Assembly: GCA_050950505.1 (NCBI GenBank)
Contig: JBMNHS010000001.1
Coordinates: 672,001-736,000, forward strand
Reading direction: 5' to 3'
Source of the DNA: Candidatus Methanomethylophilaceae archaeon
Lineage (GTDB): Archaea; Thermoplasmatota; Thermoplasmata; Methanomassiliicoccales; Methanomethylophilaceae
DNA: 64,000 nt
The notes below the pieces were generated by a model that made no database searches, was not told the DNA's origin, and saw only the letters and a program-made list of their open reading frames with translations. The position numbers and the translations under genes are program-made. Position 1 is the stretch's first letter, and each line of letters opens with the position of its first letter. Below are positions 24,873 through 64,000 of this stretch, piece after piece.

Positions 24873-25011
24873 TTATTTGAGGTGTATGTGGTTACGGTAT
24901 TAAACTTTTGGATGTTCGATCGCTTCCGTGCAGAAGTACATATACCATGAGATTCATTATTATTTATTCGAAAATACATCAATTGTGTTCTCGAATATCA
25001 CGGATGAGTAG

Positions 25012-25022
25012 TATTTTATATG
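25012..25022 (+). promoter_or_regulatory. Probable TATA box of the 16S rRNA transcript
   Basis: TTTTATAT ~320 nt upstream of 16S, followed by a hairpin-rich leader. Confidence 0.45.
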
Positions 25023-25337
25023 AATTCGTGATTGTACAATTCCCTGTGACATGTGGGGTACGGCGGCATCAAAACCGTTATATACTCCACAGCGTTACGA
25101 GGAGTTGCGAGAAAGAACCCGACGTGTATCCACGTCTGTTTTTCTTCGCAAATATGGAGAGTCAAGATCCCCGCCTCCGTGCGTGATCTCTTGAACTCTG
25201 ACGTTCGATGCTACGAATGTTCTGTTAGACGGAACATTCGATTGAGTGTGCCGTTTGACAGGACAGCGGTGAAACATGGTAAAACTGCCAGTTTCTTTTC
25301 ATCCATCCAAGACGATACAATATGTCATTAGGATTTG

Positions 25338-26807
<1,470 letters not shown>

Positions 26808-26811
26808 AAGC

Positions 26812-26834
26812 AGGGTGGGGTTTTACCCCACCCT
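26812..26834 (+). terminator. Strong hairpin immediately 3' of 16S
   Basis: AGGGTGGGGT-TTT-ACCCCACCCT, 10-bp perfect stem 4 nt after the mature end. Confidence 0.65.
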
Positions 26835-27157
26835 CAACCAAAACTATGTGTGTATCAAAACGAAAATAAAGCAAGGAAATCAATGATTTCCCGCGATTCC
26901 TCGGCAGCTTTACCATGCACTAAACGTAGCATCGAACGTCCATCCATTCTTTTTTTTCTATACTGTCTGTATAACTTTCAGTATCTTCAGAAAGTCGAAT
27001 ACGTCATGAGATTAGGTGAAAACTGCGAAATGCAAATCATGATTCGATTGCATTTTCCGTTCAGAATATAAAAGTGTAAAAAGTTTGGTTCGGAGATCCT
27101 TTCCGGCTGACGCAATTCCCCGGGGCTCTCCATTCGGTGCTCCGTTTGATTCGAAAC

Positions 27158-28348
27158 TCACCCCAGCAAAGCCTTGACGATTTCTTCGGCGGATCCGAGA
27201 TCTTCGGCACTGGGTTTCCACATGGAACGGATTCCTGTGTCGGTAACTTGGAACCCTGCATCCGCAAGCTCCTTTTTCAGTATATCGACACTCTCGCCGC
27301 TCCACCCGTAGCATCCGAACGCAGCCGCCCTTTTGTTCTTGAACTTCAGGGATTTCATGAATCTTATCGCGGTGCTCACGCCCATCATTATGTCGCGGCT
27401 GATTGTCGGGGATCCGACGGCAATCGCTTTGGATCTGAACACTTCCGTCATCATTTCGCTCATGTCCGATTTGGAACAGTTGAACATTCTTACCATGGTG
27501 TTCGGACTGACTTCGGATGTGACTCTGGATATTTCCTGGGCTATGGCGGCGGTGCCTTCCCACATGGTATCATACAGAATCGTGAGCTGATCTTCCTGGT
27601 AATTGTCTGCCCATTCCACATACTTCTCGATAATCTGCATGGGTTTGTCCCTCCAGATGACTCCGTGACTTGTGGCAATCAAATCTATCGGAATGTTCAG
27701 CGCTTTGATCTCAGCAATCTTCTTGGTTACCAAAGCGGAGAACGGTGACAGAATATTGGCGTAATATTTCATTGCCTCATATTCGAGCTTGCACTGATCT
27801 GCGGTGTCGTTGAACAATCCGCCCACGGCATAGTGCTGTCCGAAGGCATCGTTGGAGAACAGGATGTTGTCCCCCGTCAGATAAGTGGCCATACTGTCCG
27901 GCCAGTGAAGCATCGTCATCTCAACGAAAATCAATTTCTTTCCGTTTCCCACATCCACGGAATCTCCGGTCTTCACAACTCTGAAATCCCAGTTGTTTCT
28001 GCCATACTGTCCCTCTATGCTTTTTACGGCGTTGGCGGTACAGTAAATCGGGGTTTCCGGAATCTCTTTCATAAGGGCGGGAAGGGCGCCGGAGTGGTCC
28101 GCTTCACCATGATTCATGATTATGAAATCAATGTTTTCCAACCCCACTTCTTTCTTCAGATTATCGACGAACCCGTCGCCGTGAGGCGTCCATACAGTGT
28201 CTATCAACACAGTCTTTTCTTCTTCGATGAGATATGCGTTTTGACTTGAACCATCAGTGATGGTGTAGTCTTCGCCGTGGAATTTTTTAAGTTCCCAGTC
28301 CAGGTAGCCTACCCAGCTGACATTGTTTTTGATTGTACGTTTCATCAT
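27158..28348 (-). CDS. fprA: Flavodiiron protein (FprA; O2/NO reductase)
   Basis: HGEADHSG, HWPDSM, SNDAFGQH, YYANI, flavodoxin YDTMWEGT, GSPT, FGCYGWSGE. Confidence 0.95.
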   Translation of the reverse strand: MMKRTIKNNVSWVGYLDWELKKFHGEDYTITDGSSQNAYLIEEEKTVLIDTVWTPHGDGFVDNLKKEVGLENIDFIIMNHGEADHSGALPALMKEIPETPIYCTANAVKSIEGQYGRNNWDFRVVKTGDSVDVGNGKKLIFVEMTMLHWPDSMATYLTGDNILFSNDAFGQHYAVGGLFNDTADQCKLEYEAMKYYANILSPFSALVTKKIAEIKALNIPIDLIATSHGVIWRDKPMQIIEKYVEWADNYQEDQLTILYDTMWEGTAAIAQEISRVTSEVSPNTMVRMFNCSKSDMSEMMTEVFRSKAIAVGSPTISRDIMMGVSTAIRFMKSLKFKNKRAAAFGCYGWSGESVDILKKELADAGFQVTDTGIRSMWKPSAEDLGSAEEIVKALLG

Positions 28349-28507
28349 AATTCCTCTGATTCCGCAATCGGACTAGGATATTAAAATACGGTGCGTCAGG
28401 ATTATAACCCCCGGACGAAAATTCCATGAATGTATCGGATTCCGACGTTCGTCTTTACAATCCCCGTTATTAACAGAATATATCTATTTTCAGAACATCC
28501 CCCGGGT

Positions 28508-29062
28508 ATGGACGTCAGAATCAAATCGGCAGTACCGGGAGCGATTCTTTGGATGGTGTTCATAGTGCCCGCCGCGTACATGATTCATGTATCCGACTTC
28601 AGCGGAACCGAATCCTTTCTCGTGTTGTTGTTTGCCGCTTTCTCGGGAACCATAGCCACGGAGGGATATCACGAAATCGCGGGCCACCGGCCTTTGGGAA
28701 CACTCAAAGAATTCTCGGCCATGACCCGTGAAGAACTTTCCATGTTCAACGGACACAGAATATCTCTGTTCAACGGGATTCTCCACCTGATTTCCGCCGT
28801 GATTGTAAGTGCTCCGACTTATCTGCGGGCGTATTTGTACGAAGATTACATTCTGGTTATTTTCTTCAGTCTGCTGATACCCATGGCTGTCATGTTGGCC
28901 GTCGGCAGTTATTTGGTCAATTACGGCAGACTGTTCAAAACGCCAGATGGACGAAAGGCGGGCAGACTCAGAGACCCGGGAGCCGCCGCCAGAACCACGT
29001 TTTCATTGTTGATCGCGATAGGGGCATGTTACGGATTGGCGACCTTGTTTTCAATAGTATGA
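28508..29062 (+). CDS. Hypothetical membrane protein (~5 TM); start could be 28430
   Basis: Hydrophobic ORF filling the gap between fprA and tRNA-Gln; no family recognised. Confidence 0.65.
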   Translation: MDVRIKSAVPGAILWMVFIVPAAYMIHVSDFSGTESFLVLLFAAFSGTIATEGYHEIAGHRPLGTLKEFSAMTREELSMFNGHRISLFNGILHLISAVIVSAPTYLRAYLYEDYILVIFFSLLIPMAVMLAVGSYLVNYGRLFKTPDGRKAGRLRDPGAAARTTFSLLIAIGACYGLATLFSIV

Positions 29063-29118
29063 AGAAGCTTCCGAAATGAAATTCCGTCCCGATTCGACGG
29101 AATACAAGAGTGTGATTA

Positions 29119-29194
29119 TGGTAGTCCTGCCCGGGTTCGAACCGGGGTCGCTGGCTCCAAAGGCCAACATGATTGACCACTACACTACAGGACT
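29119..29194 (-). tRNA. tRNA-Gln(TTG), CCA encoded
   Basis: AGTCCTG acceptor, TTGGC-CTTTGGA-GCCAG anticodon arm, GGTTCGAACC. Confidence 0.96.
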
Positions 29195-29212
29195 TTGAAT
29201 GAGTTATCGGTT

Positions 29213-30451
29213 TCAGTTATTTAACGTTCTTCCGACAAAATATGTGGACGAACAACCTGTGATTTCCACGTCCAGGAATTTTCCCAACGGAAGGTCTTCC
29301 ATAATGCCCACGGGTCTGTAATTGTCCGTTCTGGCTATGACGGTTCCCGGTTTGCCCTTTTCAGTGACAAGAACCCTAACGGTTTTTCCGATCATCGCTT
29401 CGTTGTTCGCCAGTTCGATTTCGCTTCTGACGTCGGTGAGTTCGGTCGACCGTTCCTTCAGAATCCTGCCGTTGATCGGTTTCATTTTCGCGGCCTTTGT
29501 GCCGGGACGCGAAGAGAAACGTGTGATGTTAACAGTATCCGCTTTCAGTCTTCTGAGCAGGTCAACACTCATCCGGTGATCTTCATCAGTTTCTCCGGGA
29601 AATCCCGCAATCATATCCGTCGCAATGCTCATATCGGGATATCTGGCTCTGATCAAATCGACGAGAGCGAAAAACTCCTCCACGGAATACATCCGCTTCA
29701 TGCCATCAAGGATTCGGTTGCTGCCGCTCTGTACGGGAATATGTATGAACCTGTATAGACGCGGGTCTTTGAAAACATCAAGCAACTCATCCGCTATGGG
29801 CATCAACCAGTCGGGATTCATCATACCGATCCGTATTCGGTAATCTCCCGGAGTTTTCAGCATCAGGCGCAGAAGTTCGGGCAAACCTAAACCCGTGTCT
29901 CTGCCGTAGCAGGCGGTATCCTGCGCTGTAATCAATATTTCCTTGGCTCCCCCCGCAATCCTTTTGCGGAATTCCGCCAAAAGTTCGTCGACGGGATAAC
30001 TGATCAGTTTTCCCCTGGCGAATCTGGTTATGCAATACGAACATGCTCCGAGACAGCCTTGTGCGATGGGAATGATGGCCGAAGTGCTCGTATCTTTGTG
30101 GTCCAAAGGATTCCAGCATCCGTATTTCGTTCCGACTCTGTCGGAGAATTCCGAATAGTTCTGAGGAGATATGATAAGGGAATCGGGAAGTCTGACGGAA
30201 ATTCTTCCGGGCTGAACTTCGGCCATGCACCCGGTCACTATGACCTCTTTGCCCATGCTCCGAAGATCGGTCATCCGTTTGACCATCTTCTTTTCGGTGG
30301 TATCAACCACGGTGCAGGTGTTGAGTATGACGATGTCCGCATCTTCGACCGAAGAGGTTTCTTCGTAACCCATGCCCGTCATCCTTTCGGCGAGTTGTTC
30401 ACCCTCGCCGTAGTTCATGGTGCAGCCGTATGATTCTACGAAATATCTCAT
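29213..30451 (-). CDS. mtaB: tRNA t6A37 methylthiotransferase (MiaB-like, archaeal MtaB/CDKAL1 type)
   Basis: ESYGCTMN, NTCTV, VTGCM, GCLGACSYC radical SAM, RIGMMNP, C-terminal TRAM. Confidence 0.9.
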   Translation of the reverse strand: MRYFVESYGCTMNYGEGEQLAERMTGMGYEETSSVEDADIVILNTCTVVDTTEKKMVKRMTDLRSMGKEVIVTGCMAEVQPGRISVRLPDSLIISPQNYSEFSDRVGTKYGCWNPLDHKDTSTSAIIPIAQGCLGACSYCITRFARGKLISYPVDELLAEFRKRIAGGAKEILITAQDTACYGRDTGLGLPELLRLMLKTPGDYRIRIGMMNPDWLMPIADELLDVFKDPRLYRFIHIPVQSGSNRILDGMKRMYSVEEFFALVDLIRARYPDMSIATDMIAGFPGETDEDHRMSVDLLRRLKADTVNITRFSSRPGTKAAKMKPINGRILKERSTELTDVRSEIELANNEAMIGKTVRVLVTEKGKPGTVIARTDNYRPVGIMEDLPLGKFLDVEITGCSSTYFVGRTLNN

Positions 30452-30460
30452 ATGAAACGT

Positions 30461-31093
30461 TTAACGGGTCGCGGCTTCGTTGGTCACCTGACCGAACGCA
30501 GTTTTGTTCGAAATGTTTGTGATTTTGACACGCGCACGCGCGCCTTTGGCGGTGCCCGGCACGATAACGATCATGTCATCATGTTTGCCGATTCCGTCAC
30601 CCTTCTTTCCCACATCATTGATGACAATTTCGATAATGTCCCCGGCCTTGAGTTCGGCGGGGCCCGCTCTGACGGTCTTGCGCACGGAGATGGGTCTGCT
30701 GGCACCGCAGGCTTCACACTCGAGAAGTATGGTTCTGTCGTGTTTCACGAGCTTGGTGTCGGGACGGGAACATTCGGCACAGATCACATAGGTGTCTGTG
30801 TATTGCTGGAGTCTTTCGTTGAGAACGTTCATGGATATTTTCGCTTTGAAAATAGCCCGTCTGTTGTCAATTTCGCCGGGAGTTCCCAATTCTCTCAAGA
30901 GGAAGTGGAGCAGATGCTGAGGTTCCCTGCGGACCCTGTCTGCGATGTCCATAAAATTCCTGAGGATGGTGGTCTTACCTTCCTGCATGATATCCAGTTC
31001 CGGAAGTTCGAATCTCTCGTGAGCTTCTATCGTTTCCGGAAGATTCAGTTTGGCTCTGTTGAGCAATGCCATGTAATCTTCATCATTCCCCAT
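30461..31093 (-). CDS. eif2b: Translation initiation factor aIF2 beta with C-terminal TRAM domain
   Basis: ERFELPE, T-LRNF, RELGTPG, CAECSRPDT, CEACGA, TRAM GKKGDGIG. Confidence 0.95.
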   Translation of the reverse strand: MGNDEDYMALLNRAKLNLPETIEAHERFELPELDIMQEGKTTILRNFMDIADRVRREPQHLLHFLLRELGTPGEIDNRRAIFKAKISMNVLNERLQQYTDTYVICAECSRPDTKLVKHDRTILLECEACGASRPISVRKTVRAGPAELKAGDIIEIVINDVGKKGDGIGKHDDMIVIVPGTAKGARARVKITNISNKTAFGQVTNEAATR

Positions 31094-31382
31094 AGTATCT
31101 CCGATTCAGGCTAGGCAGAAGAGGATTTAAACGTTATGCATTCATACACGGTCACGGAAAATGGATTTCCGCCACGGCAAATATGAAACGCATATGCCGG
31201 AAATGCGGGCTTTTTTTATACAGACAGACTGAAGCGGCCATATTATGTATGCGGCCGTCACGTCGTAAAAGGTCTTATATAGAGGGTTATAATAGCAATG
31301 TTCTACGCATGACCCGTGTTATACGTGGTCTTTAAATACACAATCATATCGTGTGATAAAAAATTCAATGAGGTGAAGAAAT

Positions 31383-31811
31383 TTGGGAAATGGTCTAAAC
31401 ACCGCAAGAAAAATGAGAGTCGACAGGCAGAGGACCCGTTGGCTCGACAGAGGATACAAAAAGAGAGTGCTCAAGCTCAGGGAGAAATCGGATCCTTTGG
31501 AGGGATCCTCCCAGGCAAAGGGCATCGTGCTGGAGAAAGTCGGTATTGAAGCAAAGCAGCCCAACTCCGCCATACGCAAGTGCGTCAAGGTCCAGCTCAT
31601 AAAGAACGGACGTCAGGTCACCGCTTTTGCCGTCGGAGACGGCGCAATCAACTTCATCGACGAACATGATGAAGTTCTGATCGAAGGTATCGGCGGAAGG
31701 ATGGGTCGTTCTTACGGAGATATCCCCGGTGTCCGTTTCAAAGTAATCAAGGTTAACGATGTCTCCCTTGACGAGATGGTCAGGGGCAGAGCTGACAAGC
31801 CTGTGAGGTGA
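31383..31811 (+). CDS. rps12: 30S ribosomal protein S12 (uS12)
   Basis: [22 protein letters not shown]; TTG start after GAGGTGA. Confidence 0.98.
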
Positions 31812-54845: not shown

Positions 54846-57760
<2,915 letters not shown>

Positions 57761-57917: not shown

Positions 57918-58550
57918 ATGACTGTACAGCAGATAGGTTCGTTCGTTCCGTATGATTCCAACATGTTCTTGCTGATCGGTGAGAAAACATTGCTCATCGA
58001 CACCGGATCCGGCACGGTATCCGCACCTATTATCGGGCACATCGGCGACATTCTGAACGGCCGTAAATTGGATTCCATTGTACTGACCCATTACCATTAC
58101 GATCACATCGGCGGACTGAAGGATTTCATTCCCGCATTCGGACCGGAGATTTTTGCCGGCTCGGGAGACATAGATAAAATCAGAAAAGGCGGCCATGACG
58201 GTATATTCGGAGTCGACATCCCACCGTGCCCCAACATAAAGGAACTCTCTGAAGGGATGAAAATCGATTTGGGGGAACATCTCCTGGAAGTCATAGAGAC
58301 GCCCGGCCACACCCCGGGCGGCATCTGCCTTTACGATCACAAGACGCGTTCTCTGTTCTCCGGCGACACGGTATTCGCTGACGGAATCGGCAGAACGGAC
58401 TTTGAAGGGGGAGACATGAGACAGCTCAGAGAGTCCCTTCACAAACTGAAAAAATACGATATTCTGAACCTCTATTCCGGCCACGGGCCTGTTATAGAAG
58501 GAAGGGGTAACGATTCTATAATTAGGGGATTGAGATACATAGGTGAGTGA
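57918..58550 (+). CDS. MBL-fold metallo-hydrolase (glyoxalase II-like)
   Basis: IDTG, THYHYDHIGG, TPGHTPG, SGDTVF, GRTD, GHG. Confidence 0.92.
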   Translation: MTVQQIGSFVPYDSNMFLLIGEKTLLIDTGSGTVSAPIIGHIGDILNGRKLDSIVLTHYHYDHIGGLKDFIPAFGPEIFAGSGDIDKIRKGGHDGIFGVDIPPCPNIKELSEGMKIDLGEHLLEVIETPGHTPGGICLYDHKTRSLFSGDTVFADGIGRTDFEGGDMRQLRESLHKLKKYDILNLYSGHGPVIEGRGNDSIIRGLRYIGE

Positions 58551-58551
58551 A

Positions 58552-59184
58552 ATGCAAATACTGAAGTGCAACACAGATATGGATGAGACCACAATGGAGG
58601 CCATTTCCTATGCGGCCGAAGAAATCGCATCAGGAAACCTCGTTGTGTATCCGACGGAAACGGTTTACGGGATCGGAGCGGACGTTTACAATCAAAAGGC
58701 CGTGAAGAAAGTATTCATGGTGAAAAACAGACCCTTCGACATGGCTCTTTCCGTGGCTGTCACCGACAAAAAGATGATTGAGGACATAGCCGAGATAAAC
58801 GAGATTGCGGACAGGCTGATTGATGCCTTCCTTCCCGGCCCGCTCACCATCATCATAAAAAAGAATCCTTTGGTTTCCGATTTGGTCACTTCCGGTTCCC
58901 AAAAGGTGGGCATACGCATGCCAGACAACCCGATTGCCTTGGAACTTGTCAAAAGATGCGGCCCCATCGTGGCCACTTCAGCAAACATTCACTCTCACAA
59001 AGATGCGACATCCGTAGAGATGGCGTACAATGAACTCGGTGACAGCATTTCCACCTACCTCGATTCGGGAAGTTCGAATCTCGGAAAACCCTCGACCATA
59101 GTCTGGCTCAACGGAAACGAAGTAGAAATAATCCGTCAGGGTGCAATTTCCATCAAACAGATTTTGGAGGTCGTCGATTGTTGA
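58552..59184 (+). CDS. sua5: Threonylcarbamoyl-AMP synthase, single-domain TsaC/YrdC type
   Basis: YPTETVYG, K-RP, PGPLT, GIRMP, TSAN, PSTIV, IRQGAI; no C-terminal SUA5 domain. Confidence 0.93.
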   Translation: MQILKCNTDMDETTMEAISYAAEEIASGNLVVYPTETVYGIGADVYNQKAVKKVFMVKNRPFDMALSVAVTDKKMIEDIAEINEIADRLIDAFLPGPLTIIIKKNPLVSDLVTSGSQKVGIRMPDNPIALELVKRCGPIVATSANIHSHKDATSVEMAYNELGDSISTYLDSGSSNLGKPSTIVWLNGNEVEIIRQGAISIKQILEVVDC

Positions 59185-60068
59185 ACGACGATCAACTGTC
59201 CAAGTTGAGAAAAGCAGGCAAGGTTGCGGGCGAGGCCAGGGAAATCGGTTTGTCCATGATTGAACCCGGGGTAAAACTCTTTGACGTCGCCGAAGAAGTC
59301 GAAGCGCACATCCGCGGAAAAGGTTGCGGTCTGGCATTCCCGTGTAACGTCAGCGTGAACGAAATCGCCGCTCATTATACTCCGAGTGTCAACGACAAAA
59401 CCGTAATCAAAACCGGTGACGTAATCAAAGTCGATTGCGGGGCCGAATTGGACGGGTGGGTCGGTGACACCGCAGGCACCGCCGAGGCGGGCACCGGGAA
59501 ATACACGAGACTGATTCAGGCATCCAAACAGGCAAGGGACGCCATCGCTGATTTCGTCGGCGACGGATTTCCTCTGAGCGAAATCGGCGGAATCGTCGAA
59601 GCAAACATCCGACAGTACGGGTTCACTCCCGTACGGAATCTGTGCGGTCACCAAATCACTCAGTACAATCTTCATTCGGGACTGTCCGTTCCCAATTACG
59701 ATGACGGCAGTTCGACCAGAGCCAAAAAAGGGATGATATTGGCGATTGAACCCTTTGCAACCGACGGAAGGGGTGAAGTCGTCAACGGCAGACCGGGAAA
59801 CATTGTCAGAATAATCCGTGAACGTGAAATCGAAGAACCGGACATCAAAGAATTCTTCGACTATGTCAAAGAGGAATTCAAAACATTCCCGTTCTGCGCA
59901 AGGAGCTGTGATTTCCGCGATGCGGAAAAATATGTCAACTATTTGACAAGAAGAGGAATTCTTTCCAGCTATGCTCAGTTGGTTGAAGTGAAAAGAGGCA
60001 TTGTTTCTCAGCACGAACATACTTTTTACGTATCAGGGGACAGGGCAGAAATCCTTACTGAACCGTGA
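59178..60068 (+). CDS. map: Methionine aminopeptidase type II
   Basis: AFPCNVS-NE-AAHYTP, KVD-G, DTA, NL-GH, AIEPFAT, SQHEHT. Confidence 0.96.
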   Translation: MLNDDQLSKLRKAGKVAGEAREIGLSMIEPGVKLFDVAEEVEAHIRGKGCGLAFPCNVSVNEIAAHYTPSVNDKTVIKTGDVIKVDCGAELDGWVGDTAGTAEAGTGKYTRLIQASKQARDAIADFVGDGFPLSEIGGIVEANIRQYGFTPVRNLCGHQITQYNLHSGLSVPNYDDGSSTRAKKGMILAIEPFATDGRGEVVNGRPGNIVRIIREREIEEPDIKEFFDYVKEEFKTFPFCARSCDFRDAEKYVNYLTRRGILSSYAQLVEVKRGIVSQHEHTFYVSGDRAEILTEP

Positions 60069-60104
60069 GGTTTATTTACATCCGTACAGTACCTCACGCA
60101 AACA

Positions 60105-60192
60105 GCCGAAGTTGCCAAGCCAGGTCAAAGGCGGCAGACTCAAGATCTGTTCTCGTAGGAGTTCACCGGTTCGAATCCGGTCTTCGGCACCA
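60105..60192 (+). tRNA. tRNA-Leu(CAA), CCA encoded
   Basis: GCCGAAG/CTTCGGC acceptor, GCAGA-CTCAAGA-TCTGT anticodon arm, long variable arm, GGTTCGAATCC. Confidence 0.96.
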
Positions 60193-60221
60193 TTAATATA
60201 ATTCACTTTGATTCACAGGCC

Positions 60222-60743
60222 ATGGCAGAGCCTCAACAAATAGCGACCGCGTCTGTTCTGACTTTAATTGCCGGCTTAATCGTGTCAATGTTTTCGTTGG
60301 CATTTCCCCTCGTCATGATCGGAAATCTTTCAGTGACTCTGATAGCGGGACTGCTGGTCATGCTGTTCTCCGCAATACTGTTTGTCATGCAGGCTCTTCC
60401 CATGGAAATCACTTTCACTTCCGATAATTCATCCTTCAGGATAAAAGGCCCCTATTACGCCCGCACCATAGATTATTCCGAAGTGTCTTCCGTGGAATGC
60501 AGAAAGTTCCCCTTGGGAACTCCGTTGATGGCTCTGAATTCCGGGGATGGCGTTCTCGGCGGGCAGTTCAAATCTCCGGAGGCGGGAATGTGCCACGCAG
60601 TGGGCCATAATCGGGGGGAGGACACCTGTTACATTGTGATGAAACTCACGGACGGAAAAACCGTCGCATTCAACCTGGAATCCGAAGAGGAAACCGAGAA
60701 AATTTACGGAACGATATGTTCAAAAGCATCCTGTCGTCCCTGA
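60222..60743 (+). CDS. Membrane-anchored bacterial-PH (bPH_5-like) domain protein
   Basis: 2 TM then I-Y-EV-SV, G-F-S---G, K-VAFN-ESEEET. Confidence 0.7.
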   Translation: MAEPQQIATASVLTLIAGLIVSMFSLAFPLVMIGNLSVTLIAGLLVMLFSAILFVMQALPMEITFTSDNSSFRIKGPYYARTIDYSEVSSVECRKFPLGTPLMALNSGDGVLGGQFKSPEAGMCHAVGHNRGEDTCYIVMKLTDGKTVAFNLESEEETEKIYGTICSKASCRP

Positions 60744-60778
60744 AGATATTATTTTATATCACGCACTAATTCAAATCC

Positions 60779-61951
60779 GTGTCCAAAGCTCAGAAACTGA
60801 CGGCATTGGGAATATTGTTGATGTTTATCGAAACGGCGGCGATTCTGATTGTTGCCCTGCTGTCTTTCAGTGAAACATTCATCTGGATACTGATGGTTTC
60901 GATGGTGCCCACAACGGCACTGTTTCTTGTGCCGATGTTTCCGCTGAATCCGGTTTTTACTCCGGAGATATCGTCTTTCCGAATCAAAGGACCGTATCTC
61001 GACAGGACCGTTGAGTATTCGGACATAGTGTCAATGAGATACGACGGCGTCGAACTCGGAATGCGGATGATGGGTATTTACACGGGACGCGGCAGTTTCG
61101 GGGGAACCTTCAGAAACAAAGAGTTCGGCGGTTACGGCATTGTCGGCAAAAACAGAGGTCCTGGCACCAGGTACATAATACTGAAACTGAAAGATGACAA
61201 AGTTGTCGCATTCAACCTCAAAACCGAAGAAGACACGCTACTGGCATTCGAACAGATCAGGGGGTACACAGGGTTGCACGAATCCGCAGATGCCGAGTCC
61301 CGCAAAACCGTAATTCAGAATCCGAAAACCGGGGAACTTTATGAAAAAGCGAAAAAGATCTCCCGAATCACGATGATTCTGTCCGCGGCAATCGGTATTC
61401 TGATTCCTCTGGGAATCCTGATTCTGTACAGAGGCGATGCAATCAGGTCAATATTGGTTCCGACATCGCTCTCGGCCATTGTCCCAATTGCGGCCATTGT
61501 CGTTTACCATAACCGGTTCAAAGAAACGGGGTTGCCGAAATCCGATCGATCGGGTACACTGACGGCACTCGGATCTCAGCTGGCGATTGTTCCCATACTG
61601 TTTGCTGTCATAGGGTTCATAACGGTTCCCGCAATGATAAATGTGGAAATCTCCGAGGATTATTTTTCGGTAAGCTCAACAATGCTGGATGTTAAAATTT
61701 ATTACGAGGACATAACCGAACTTGATACCACCGAAGAGAAATTCAGAAGGGATTGGGGTTACGGCGGATCCAACATAGGCACCGGGAATTTCAGTAATTC
61801 CAACTTCGGAAAAGTGAAGTACGCCGCTTACAACAACGTGCAAACCAAGATTGTCGTGAAACACGAACACGGCACTTTCGTGTTCAACCAAAGCACCGAG
61901 GAATCGACATTGGTCATGCTGAATCTGTTGAAAGATAAAACCGGGTTGTGA
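60779..61951 (+). CDS. Membrane protein with two bPH-like domains
   Basis: N-half paralogous to the upstream gene; C-half I-YEDI, R-WG-G, TGNF-N--FG, VFN. Confidence 0.7.
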   Translation: MSKAQKLTALGILLMFIETAAILIVALLSFSETFIWILMVSMVPTTALFLVPMFPLNPVFTPEISSFRIKGPYLDRTVEYSDIVSMRYDGVELGMRMMGIYTGRGSFGGTFRNKEFGGYGIVGKNRGPGTRYIILKLKDDKVVAFNLKTEEDTLLAFEQIRGYTGLHESADAESRKTVIQNPKTGELYEKAKKISRITMILSAAIGILIPLGILILYRGDAIRSILVPTSLSAIVPIAAIVVYHNRFKETGLPKSDRSGTLTALGSQLAIVPILFAVIGFITVPAMINVEISEDYFSVSSTMLDVKIYYEDITELDTTEEKFRRDWGYGGSNIGTGNFSNSNFGKVKYAAYNNVQTKIVVKHEHGTFVFNQSTEESTLVMLNLLKDKTGL

Positions 61952-61981
61952 TTCCTCTTTATACGCGCGTGTACGCGTTGA

Positions 61982-61989
61982 TTTATATA
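61982..61989 (+). promoter_or_regulatory. TATA box of the rps13 operon
   Basis: TTTATATA ~20 nt upstream of the structured leader. Confidence 0.6.
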
Positions 61990-62008
61990 CAAAGAGTACA
62001 TGGTTCGC

Positions 62009-62105
62009 TTTACGCAAACTCGGGACCCGCACAGCGAATACCGAGAGCTCCGTCATACCATGACCGGGCTTGAACAATCCCGCGAGGGACATTTGCGGAG
62101 GTAAA
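62009..62105 (+). ncRNA. Candidate structured 5' leader (four-way junction) of the rps13-rps4-rps11-rpoD operon
   Basis: Four nested helices readable by eye, one with a GCGA tetraloop; the closing stem overlaps the GGAGG SD. Confidence 0.55.
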
Positions 62106-62109
62106 CAAA

Positions 62110-62577
62110 ATGGTTAGTAAAAAGAACACGAAGGCCGAAGATGAGGATTTCAACTTCATCGTACGCATCGCCAACACCGACATAGACGGTCAGAAGAGGG
62201 CGATCATCGGTCTGCAGGGCATCAAAGGTGTCGGTGCAAGAACCGCACACACAATTGTAAAGAGGGCCAAAGTCGATGAGACGGTAAAATTGGGTTCCCT
62301 CGAAGAAGATAAAATCAAAGAACTCGAAGAGCTCGTGACCACTTTCGTGGAATACGCCCCCAACTGGGCTGTCAACAGGCAGATGGATTATGAAACCGGA
62401 GCCGACATGCACCTCATCGGAATGGATCTGAACATGATTCAGGAAGAGGACGTAAACAGGCTCAAGATGATTCGCAGCTACCGCGGCATCAGACACGAGA
62501 CGTTCAAGAAAGTCAGAGGCCAGAGGACCAGGACCAACGGAAGAAAAGGTCTTACCCTCGGAGTCACCAGAAGGTAA
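62110..62577 (+). CDS. rps13: 30S ribosomal protein S13 (uS13)
   Basis: IVRIANTDIDG, IKGVG, NRQ-DYETG, YRGIRH, VRGQRTR. Confidence 0.98.
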   Translation: MVSKKNTKAEDEDFNFIVRIANTDIDGQKRAIIGLQGIKGVGARTAHTIVKRAKVDETVKLGSLEEDKIKELEELVTTFVEYAPNWAVNRQMDYETGADMHLIGMDLNMIQEEDVNRLKMIRSYRGIRHETFKKVRGQRTRTNGRKGLTLGVTRR

Positions 62578-62586
62578 GGTGTCTGA

Positions 62587-63237
62587 ATGGGAGATCCTAA
62601 ATTTCCGCGCAGATCCTACGACGCACCGTCCCACCCCTGGGAAGGCGAGAGGATAAAATCCGAACAGCTCGTTGTCAACGAGTTCGGTCTCAAGAACAAA
62701 TCCGAAGTATGGAAGGCACAGTCGGTTCTCAGGAACTACAGAAAACAGTCCAGAGAACTTCAGGCCCGCCTCAGGGGAAACGACCCTCAGGCTAAGGTCG
62801 AAGCCGACAACCTTCTTGAAAAGTGCACCCGCATGGGACTTTTGCCCATGGCCGGCGGTGACCTGAACGACATTCTGGTTCTCAGTGAAAGCGACATTCT
62901 TTCCAGGAGACTTCAGACCATCGTTTACGAAAAGGGTTTGGCCAACACGATAAAACAGGCCAGGCAGATGATCAATCACGGTCACATCTTCCTTAACGGC
63001 CACAGGGTAACCGTTCCCGGTTATATCGTTCTCAGGAGCGAAGAACCCACAATTCAATACGCACCCAGCTCGGCGTTCACGGACGACATGCATCCCATGA
63101 GGATGTCCCCTGAAGAACTTGCGGCGAAACTCGAAGCGGATGCCGCAAGAGCCGAGGCAGAGGCAAAGAAGCTGGCGGAAACCGCAAAGAAAGATGCGGA
63201 AGAAGCAGGCATAACACCGGAGGATGGTGAGAACTGA
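62587..63237 (+). CDS. rps4: 30S ribosomal protein S4 (uS4), with Ala/Glu-rich C-terminal tail
   Basis: MGDPKF, P-HPW, FGLKNK-E, RRLQT, QARQ-I-HGH. Confidence 0.98.
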
Positions 63238-63623
63238 TGGCAGACAAATGGGCTATAGCCAATATATTCGCCACTTACAACAATATCATGATTACCCTCA
63301 CCGACATCACCGGTGCGGAAACCATCGGTAAGGTTACCGGCGGAATGGTCGTGAAGCAGGCGAAAGATCAGGCTTCTCCCTATGCCGCACAGAGAGCGGC
63401 GGAGAAGATTGCGGAAATTGCAAGGGAAAAGGACGTTGTGGGCATCCACGTCAAAGTACGTGCCCACGGCGGAAACAAAGCCACTTCCCCCGGTCCCGGA
63501 GCACAGGCGGCCATCCGTGCCCTCGCAAGAGCCGGCATAAGAATCGGACGCATCGAAGATGTGACCCCGATACCTCATGACGGTACCAAGAAGAAGGGCG
63601 GACGCAGAGGACGCAGGGTCTGA
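63237..63623 (+). CDS. rps11: 30S ribosomal protein S11 (uS11)
   Basis: [46 protein letters not shown]. Confidence 0.98.
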
Positions 63624-63633
63624 GGTCAATCTC

Positions 63634-64000
63634 ATGGAAATAGAAATCATCGAAATGGCCGAGAGGAAGGCCAAGTTCATATTAAAGAACTCCTCGCCCG
63701 CCATGGCAAACGCACTCAGAAGGACCATGATGTCCGACATTCCGAAAATGGCCATTGATACCGTCGAGTTCCACCTCGGAACCATCGAAATCAACGATAA
63801 GGAATACGAGAGTGCCACGCCCCTGTTCGACGAAATCATCGCCCACAGACTGGGAATGATTCCGGTCCCCACGGACCTGGAACTTTTCACTTTCAAAGAC
63901 CAGTGCGTATGTGAGGGTGAGGGATGCCCCAACTGTACTATTATGTACAGCATCAACGAACACGGCCCCGGTACGGTAATGTCCGGAAACATGGTGCCGC
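63634..64000 (+). CDS. rpoD: RNA polymerase subunit Rpo3 (D), partial (runs off window end)
   Basis: Manual translation MEIEII...ANALRRTMMSDIPKMAID...LFDEIIAHRLGMIP...CVCEGEGCPNC. Confidence 0.95.
   Translation, partial: MEIEIIEMAERKAKFILKNSSPAMANALRRTMMSDIPKMAIDTVEFHLGTIEINDKEYESATPLFDEIIAHRLGMIPVPTDLELFTFKDQCVCEGEGCPNCTIMYSINEHGPGTVMSGNMVP

Follow-up and report, generated by a model that had tools for sequence, protein, structure and literature searches.

Feedback on ribosomal-protein synthesis through mRNA leaders is a textbook mechanism in bacteria, and the leaders involved (r-leaders) are typically present in single copy and restricted to particular lineages. They frequently mimic the rRNA site of the protein that they bind, although such mimicry is not obligatory. 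To our knowledge, only a handful of archaeal candidates exist. In the accessible text of an r-leader survey (PMC7247131), the bacterial alpha operon is described as regulated by S4, which in E. coli binds the Alpha_RBS pseudoknot, and S4 r-leaders are reported from Firmicutes, Clostridia, Fusobacteriales, Bacteroidia and Flavobacteria, with structures that are unrelated between lineages. The same text gives four archaeal motifs, two of them for S15 (Halobacteria, Methanomicrobia), one for eL15 (Euryarchaeota) and one for L4 (Archaeoglobi), and none for the S13-S4-S11-RpoD operon.

The operon studied here lies on the + strand of a 64,000-nt stretch of a Candidatus Methanomethylophilaceae genome (hereafter the window). 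It comprises rps13 (uS13; 62110-62577; Pfam Ribosomal_S13, E 2.2e-40), beginning with an ATG at 62110, rps4 (uS4; 62587-63237; Pfam S4 domain, E 2.4e-16, together with the Ribosomal_S4 N-terminal domain), rps11 (uS11; 63237-63623; Pfam Ribosomal_S11, E 2.2e-39) and rpoD, encoding the Rpb3-like RNA polymerase subunit D (from 63634 to 64000 and past the window end; RNA_pol_L, E 2.5e-8, and RNA_pol_A_bac). Successive genes lie close together, with 9 nt between rps13 and rps4, a 1-nt overlap of rps4 and rps11 (TGATG) and 10 nt between rps11 and rpoD. With such tight spacing, control exerted at the first start codon could spread downstream. The structured leader in front of rps13 is, judging from its conservation in relatives, a real cis-acting RNA. 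We propose, at a probability of about 0.55, that it is an uncatalogued ribosomal-protein autoregulatory leader, or feedback operator, restricted to one family of the Methanomassiliicoccales.

The leader (5' UTR; 62012-62109, +) combines a four-way junction with the ribosome-binding site, as delimited by fold, covariation and the match of a covariance model of the window's leader (R1; 100 positions, 24 pairs), which covers 62012-62111 with 92.2 bits (E 2.5e-21). All its parts read on the + strand. Helix P1 joins CGCAAA (62013-62018) to TTTGCG (62092-62097) through six pairs, and the final G of its 3' strand is also the first G of the Shine-Dalgarno sequence GGAGG (62097-62101), whose complement, CCTCC, occurs at the 3' end of the 16S rRNA of this genome. 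The P2 hairpin (62019-62045) has an outer stem of CTCGG (62019-62023) with CCGAG (62041-62045), an internal loop in which GACC (62024-62027) faces AATA (62037-62040), and an inner stem CGC/GCG closed by an ACA loop. The P3 hairpin (62046-62070) is followed by the linker TGAACAA (62071-62077), by the P4 hairpin TCCC-GCGA-GGGA (62078-62089) and by the dinucleotide CA (62090-62091) leading back to P1. The positions that an earlier, sequence-only reading had assigned to the TATA box, P1 to P4, GGAGG and the ATG at 62110 were each found to be exact.

When the RNA of 62005-62115 was folded, all four helices appeared in both the minimum free energy (MFE) and the centroid structure. The energy was -35.5 kcal/mol, compared with -27.2 +/- 3.35 kcal/mol for shuffled sequences (z -2.49; 5 of 200 shuffles folded as well), while the opposite strand gave a z of -0.93 and was equalled by 33 of 200 shuffles. 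The four-helix junction proposed from the letters was thus reproduced by the MFE fold, and it is kept in relatives with compensatory changes. The single-sequence z-score is modest; in our view, it is the covariation among relatives that gives the leader structure its decisive support.

To assemble these relatives, rps13 loci were gathered with the uS13 protein as query, the gene being found in 40 of 41 related genomes. The window's family within the Methanomassiliicoccales is referred to as f1 and the six sister families of the order as f2 to f7. Upstream regions from 23 f1 loci were aligned with MAFFT without regard to structure (alignment A1), a 24th locus, L005, lying at a contig edge without upstream DNA. 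RNAalifold recovered P1 to P4 from A1, in which 94.6% of cells were paired as against 24.3-46.9% when the 3' partners were slid by one to three columns; 11 of the 24 pairs had changed on both sides, and the covariation score was reached by none of 500 shuffles. A second, model-based alignment of 40 copies (39 distinct) is biased towards the structure of the model, hence the priority given to A1. It had 96.0% of cells paired versus 21.8-43.5% after sliding, and both-side changes in 13 of 24 pairs (101 cells), with compensatory change in at least two pairs of each helix. Covariation, which the sequence-only reading had singled out as the check to make, was therefore clear in the blind and the model-based alignment alike.

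The changes were distributed over the whole junction. P1 (f1 consensus CGYAAA/UUURCG) had 99.6% of the cells of its six pairs paired, with a C-G/U-A exchange (14 versus 24 rows) and a single A-U to G-C change. Its placement against the ribosome-binding site, also noticed at the outset, held up: in 38 of 39 distinct rows the G that opens GGAGG takes part in the last P1 pair, the Shine-Dalgarno being GGAGG in 38 of the 39 distinct relatives and AGAGG in the other. P2 follows P1 without a spacer, and its outer stem (CUCRG/CYGAG) was paired in 99.0% of cells, with an A-U/G-C exchange in 26 versus 13 rows; since this exchange occurs both inside the window's genus and in other genera, it does not trace back to one inherited event. 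The 4x4 internal loop, GACC/AANA, is nearly invariant, the inner stem covaries (both-side changes in all four pairs) and the terminal loop is variable. P3, again without a spacer, has an invariant AGC/GCU base and a distal part of about 15 to more than 50 nt that differs between copies in both length and sequence and includes both-side pair changes. A linker of 7-8 nt beginning with UGR leads to P4 (UYCC/GGRA), where U-A/A-U and U-A/C-G exchanges were present, followed by the invariant CA and the 3' strand of P1. The G-U intermediates are compatible with the + strand only. The GNRA tetraloop initially read in P4 is indeed there in the window, but it is particular to the window's genome, as the P4 loops of relatives vary in sequence and length. 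Conserved nucleotides are thus concentrated in two places, the core of the junction and the internal loop of P2, and the tips of the helices vary freely, which is the pattern that would be expected of a site recognised by a macromolecule or a ligand.

The position of the leader is equally constant. All 40 copies examined end at the start of rps13 and have rps4 as the next gene, with rps11 downstream in 39 (the remaining locus is cut by a contig end), and from the Shine-Dalgarno the ATG is reached within about 6-10 nt. In some genera (loci L008 and L023, also L050, L053 and L058), 41-77 nt separate the ATG adjoining the leader from the conserved uS13 core downstream, implying an N-terminal extension of uS13 of about 14-25 residues that was confirmed to be in frame for L008 and L023 only.

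The operon promoter has a TATA box, TTTATATA (61982-61989, +), that is kept in relatives: in 38 of 40, a TATA-like box ends 19-24 nt upstream of where the element begins. The usual archaeal spacing between TATA box and start puts the start of transcription at or next to A62012, which is 22 nt past the box in the window. We infer that transcription starts at about 62012, so that P1 would begin with the second base of the RNA. One public RNA-library contig spans 61964-62360, beginning before the TATA box, and others cover the upstream gene; these data are assembled contigs only, labelled metatranscriptomic, and may hold DNA. Directly upstream of the TATA box, at 61963-61978, we observed an inverted repeat (ACGCG...CGCGT) of alternating purines and pyrimidines, which could be a transcription-factor site or a feature of the BRE region. 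A pattern search returned its arrangement with the TATA box once in the genome, and CG/TG-rich tracts upstream of the TATA box occur in many relatives, though not in all.

We then examined how widely the leader is distributed. R1 matched 59 of the 63 other f1 genomes, exactly once in each, and the leader was present in 12 f1 genera when these genomes and the loci found with the uS13 query were combined. Among the four f1 genomes without a match, one (93% complete) also lacked an rps13 match with the uS13 query. Outside the family, no match was obtained in 87 genomes of the six sister families, nor, at the level of the class, in 135 genomes from 28 other families, where 15 of 15 f1 genomes were matched; both counts refer to genome samples searched with strict filters. 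Three f1 genera keep the operon and have other leaders before rps13 in place of the junction, which is therefore dispensable. In two of these genera the leader is a short hairpin, and in the third it is about 150 nt long, ends and starts like the window's leader and has no R1 match.

Public contigs were also scanned with a 16-base consensus, which returned mostly chance matches; 20 of the 80 loci listed were true R1 matches. Among the matches listed, the records of true carriers were titled Methanomethylophilaceae, Methanomethylophilus, Methanoplasma, Methanomassiliicoccales or Thermoplasmata archaeon and, by these titles, are host-associated and digester methanogens. Two true matches, L138 and L139, lie on contigs with bacterial titles, a 3.5-kb contig of a Ruminococcus bin and a 63-kb contig of an Eggerthellaceae bin, which are probably archaeal DNA binned with the wrong genome. 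A weak R1 match between rps4 and rps11 at locus L062 (16.2 bits) was rejected, as it falls in a 12-nt tandem repeat of the coding tail of rps4. In the genus concerned (L062, 2580-2680), the C-terminal tail of uS4 is made of about nine such 12-nt units and reads as a Pro-Val-Asp-Val repeat.

The claim that the leader is new agrees with the searches of catalogued RNAs. A cmscan of 61800-62300 against Rfam 15, with E up to 10, gave only a miRNA model on the opposite strand (E 1.9); neither the Alpha_RBS, S4, S15, eL15 and L4 leader families nor the riboswitch families matched the leader at that threshold. A scan of the whole window at the Rfam 15 gathering thresholds returned the rRNAs and four tRNAs and nothing at the leader. 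The leader is likewise absent from the accessible text of the archaeal r-leader survey (PMC7247131), and literature searches naming Methanomethylophilaceae or Methanomassiliicoccales listed no paper that contains the taxon name.

The sequence-only reading had further suggested that the element might derive from a tRNA, given that many archaea have a tRNA-Ser at this position. A related reading takes the element for an independent small RNA, or for a degenerate tRNA-like one, placed before rps13 by chance; it is encouraged by the four arms, with their cloverleaf-like shape, and by the tRNA genes found near the operon in relatives. ARAGORN and the Rfam tRNA model were, however, silent on the element, and no tRNA-Ser was found within about 1.5 kb upstream of rps13 at 12 loci of the order, where the only tRNA near rps13 was a tRNA-Leu(CAA) at varying distance. 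In the window this tRNA-Leu(CAA) is a separate, intact gene (60105-60192), the only tRNA reported by ARAGORN in 58000-64000. Moreover, in every copy P1 and the Shine-Dalgarno have a base in common, through the 3' strand of the helix and 8 nt before the ATG, which makes the RNA physically part of the messenger; there is also no second TATA-like (A/T-rich) box between the element and the ATG in the window sequence. Taken together, these results make a chance neighbour of this kind hardly credible. The distance from the tRNA-Leu(CAA) to the leader downstream of it is 1.9 kb in the window and about 80 nt in the relative L019. Between this tRNA and the window's leader are two membrane-protein-like open reading frames (60222-60743 and 60779-61951), the second with a weak match to a bacterial PH domain.

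We next looked for mimicry of rRNA. One 8-mer and a few 7-mers are common to the leader and the 16S rRNA of its genome, where chance alone was estimated to give about 2 and about 8, respectively. With filters off, R1 found only itself in the whole window, the next hit (11.3 bits, E 0.72) lying inside an open reading frame. A model of P2 only (R3) was based on 36 distinct P2 segments, the atypical L015, L016 and L022 of the 39 being dropped, and R1 and R3 together gave nothing in the 16S and 23S genes at E up to 10 except one 8.6-bit row in the 23S. Mimicry was accordingly rejected as far as k-mers, R1 and R3 could detect it in these genes. The 16S (25338-26807) and 23S (54846-57760) genes are on the same strand about 28 kb apart and are therefore not in one operon; separated 16S and 23S genes are a known trait of Thermoplasmata. 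A scan of 25001-31500, which includes the 16S and excludes the 23S, for patterns like the P2 internal loop gave eight rows in the 16S gene. One of them, at 26525/26564, which we take to be h41, resembles by eye a real helix with a P2-like loop, and R3 does not detect it. The h41 region is contacted by uS13/uS19 according to the accessible text of PMC13246957, and we treat the likeness of P2 to this helix as a lead only.

A conserved core could also serve a ligand of another kind. The junction might sense a small molecule, subunit D or a general RNA-binding protein such as L7Ae, and so co-regulate the ribosomal proteins with subunit D. The conserved unpaired nucleotides (the GACC/AANA loop and the UGR and CA linkers) could form a pocket for such a ligand, and the operon mixes genes of translation with a gene of transcription. 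Against this, no riboswitch family matched at E up to 10, and the gene context is the classic one for ribosomal-protein feedback. A kink-turn, the site of L7Ae, consists of a 3-nt bulge followed by tandem sheared G-A pairs between two helices, and no helix junction in the 40-row alignment fitted this pattern on inspection by hand. We thus regard a sensor of this type as distinctly unlikely.

The other families of the order were found to carry different RNAs at the same place. In f3, an RNA of about 130-170 nt lies directly 5' of rps13, with five hairpins inside an enclosing helix (loci L185-L214, at about 1501-1670 in each, and L025-L027 and L030). A covariance model of this leader built from four sequences (R2) had one copy in each of 32 of 47 f3 genomes, from five genera, and none in 63 f1 genomes or in 40 genomes of other families; conversely, R1 had no match in the 47 f3 genomes. 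In 30 aligned copies, 96.5% of cells were paired versus 37.7-47.6% after sliding, 26 of 47 pairs had changed on both sides, and one hairpin was almost invariant; no Rfam match was obtained for this leader. It resembles the leader of the window in its place, its multi-helix build, its single copy and its strong covariation, and differs from it in its length and in the lack of any cross-match between R1 and R2. By eye, its invariant hairpin resembles P2, with a GGAC bulge facing an A-rich bulge. A protein-binding module common to both was nevertheless rejected, as R3 had no match on this hairpin at any of 11 f3 loci with E up to 10. The remaining families were compared at loci L028, L029 and L215-L224. 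In f2, f4, f5 and f6 the rps13 leader is a common one, only about 70 nt long, and contains a small hairpin whose 5' arm is G-rich and whose 3' arm contains CUCC and could also pair with the Shine-Dalgarno, and f7 has yet another rps13 leader with a different hairpin.

Unrelated, lineage-specific leaders at one operon are also what is seen among bacterial r-leaders, and this adds indirect weight to the reading of the junction as an operator. The same diversity could be cast differently: a riboswitch-like sensor of growth state, responding to a small molecule, subunit D or another non-ribosomal factor, would set the joint output of small-subunit proteins and the polymerase subunit, with the leaders of the sister families as alternative solutions. 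We mention this as a speculation and hold it to be very improbable.

Accessibility of the ribosome-binding site was then considered by folding the 39 distinct leaders with 30 nt of coding sequence attached. The median predicted unpaired probability was 0.73 for the GAGG of the Shine-Dalgarno. Being mostly unpaired, this GAGG would need a bound factor to be controlled, rather than intrinsic sequestration. With one missing pair allowed, P1 and P4 were each present in 27 of the 39 MFE structures, P3 in 30, and P2 in 37, its inner stem in 35. P1 was missing in 12; in these, part of the alternative fold pairs the 5' strand of P4 with the Shine-Dalgarno, which is not general. The longer P1 of the sequence-only reading, in which TTTA/TAAA pairs extend the helix around a bulged GAGG, was not borne out by the relatives, as all four pairs were found in 4 of 39, with 0-7 of 39 in slid controls. 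Another extension, GCUUU/GAGGU, seen in the single-sequence MFE structure, was complete in 3 of 39 (0-1 in slid controls), and both extensions lie upstream of the inferred start. Sequestration of the Shine-Dalgarno through an extended P1 was not supported, neither extension being conserved.

The junction might also be no feedback operator. It could instead be a structured 5' end that protects the mRNA from 5'-end-dependent decay, guides its processing or, by presenting the Shine-Dalgarno, enhances translation constitutively. Such a role would suit a P1 that starts one base in from the inferred 5' end and a Shine-Dalgarno predicted to be open in the free RNA; it would also be at ease with the negative search for rRNA mimicry and with the three f1 genera that do without the junction. 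A protective stem, on the other hand, needs no invariant core, 4x4 loop and fixed linkers maintained over 12 genera while the tips drift, and a conserved leader of its own was found at the rps13 operon in each family of the order that was sampled, which suggests specific recognition. On balance, we consider a purely structural 5' end unlikely.

The leader shows what is usually asked of an r-leader: it forms the 5' UTR of a ribosomal-protein operon, has a covarying structure and abuts or overlaps the ribosome-binding site. If it is a feedback operator, the following model can be drawn. Transcription would begin at about 62012, and the RNA, starting with P1, would fold into the four-way junction of P1 to P4. 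In the free RNA the Shine-Dalgarno would be mostly single-stranded and translation would go on. A small-subunit protein made from the operon, once in excess over free 16S rRNA, would bind the junction and lock P1, so that the 30S subunit would be sterically blocked or trapped at the start of rps13. Repression would then be passed on to the later genes, which follow closely or overlap. As the putative protein ligand we favour uS4, purely on precedent: it controls the homologous alpha operon of bacteria and, unlike uS13 and uS11, is a primary rRNA binder in the assembly map. The data themselves are equally compatible with uS13 and uS11.

With its strong covariation, single copy and compact fold, the leader is a candidate suited to binding and structural work, and it provides a specific marker of the window's family. 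The differing rps13 leaders of the order form a natural series in which the origin and replacement of archaeal ribosomal-protein operators could be followed. Compared with the archaeal S15, eL15 and L4 candidates, as given in the accessible text of PMC7247131, it is alike in being a 5' leader of ribosomal-protein genes known from single lineages and supported by covariation only, and unlike in its operon, its fold and its lineage, here the Methanomassiliicoccales. Three of the four archaeal motifs published there have rRNA-like nucleotides, whereas none were found in the window's leader. The bacterial alpha-operon leader, again as that text presents it, likewise precedes the homologous cluster (S13, S11, S4 and the polymerase alpha or D subunit) and is a lineage-restricted, structured RNA at the rps13 ribosome-binding site. 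In contrast to the bacterial leaders, the RNA of the window is a four-way junction and not a nested pseudoknot or hairpin, it has no Rfam match, its host is archaeal, the gene order is S13-S4-S11 and the protein ligand is putative. Should this ligand be uS4, S4 feedback would have been gained independently by the same operon in Bacteria and in Archaea.
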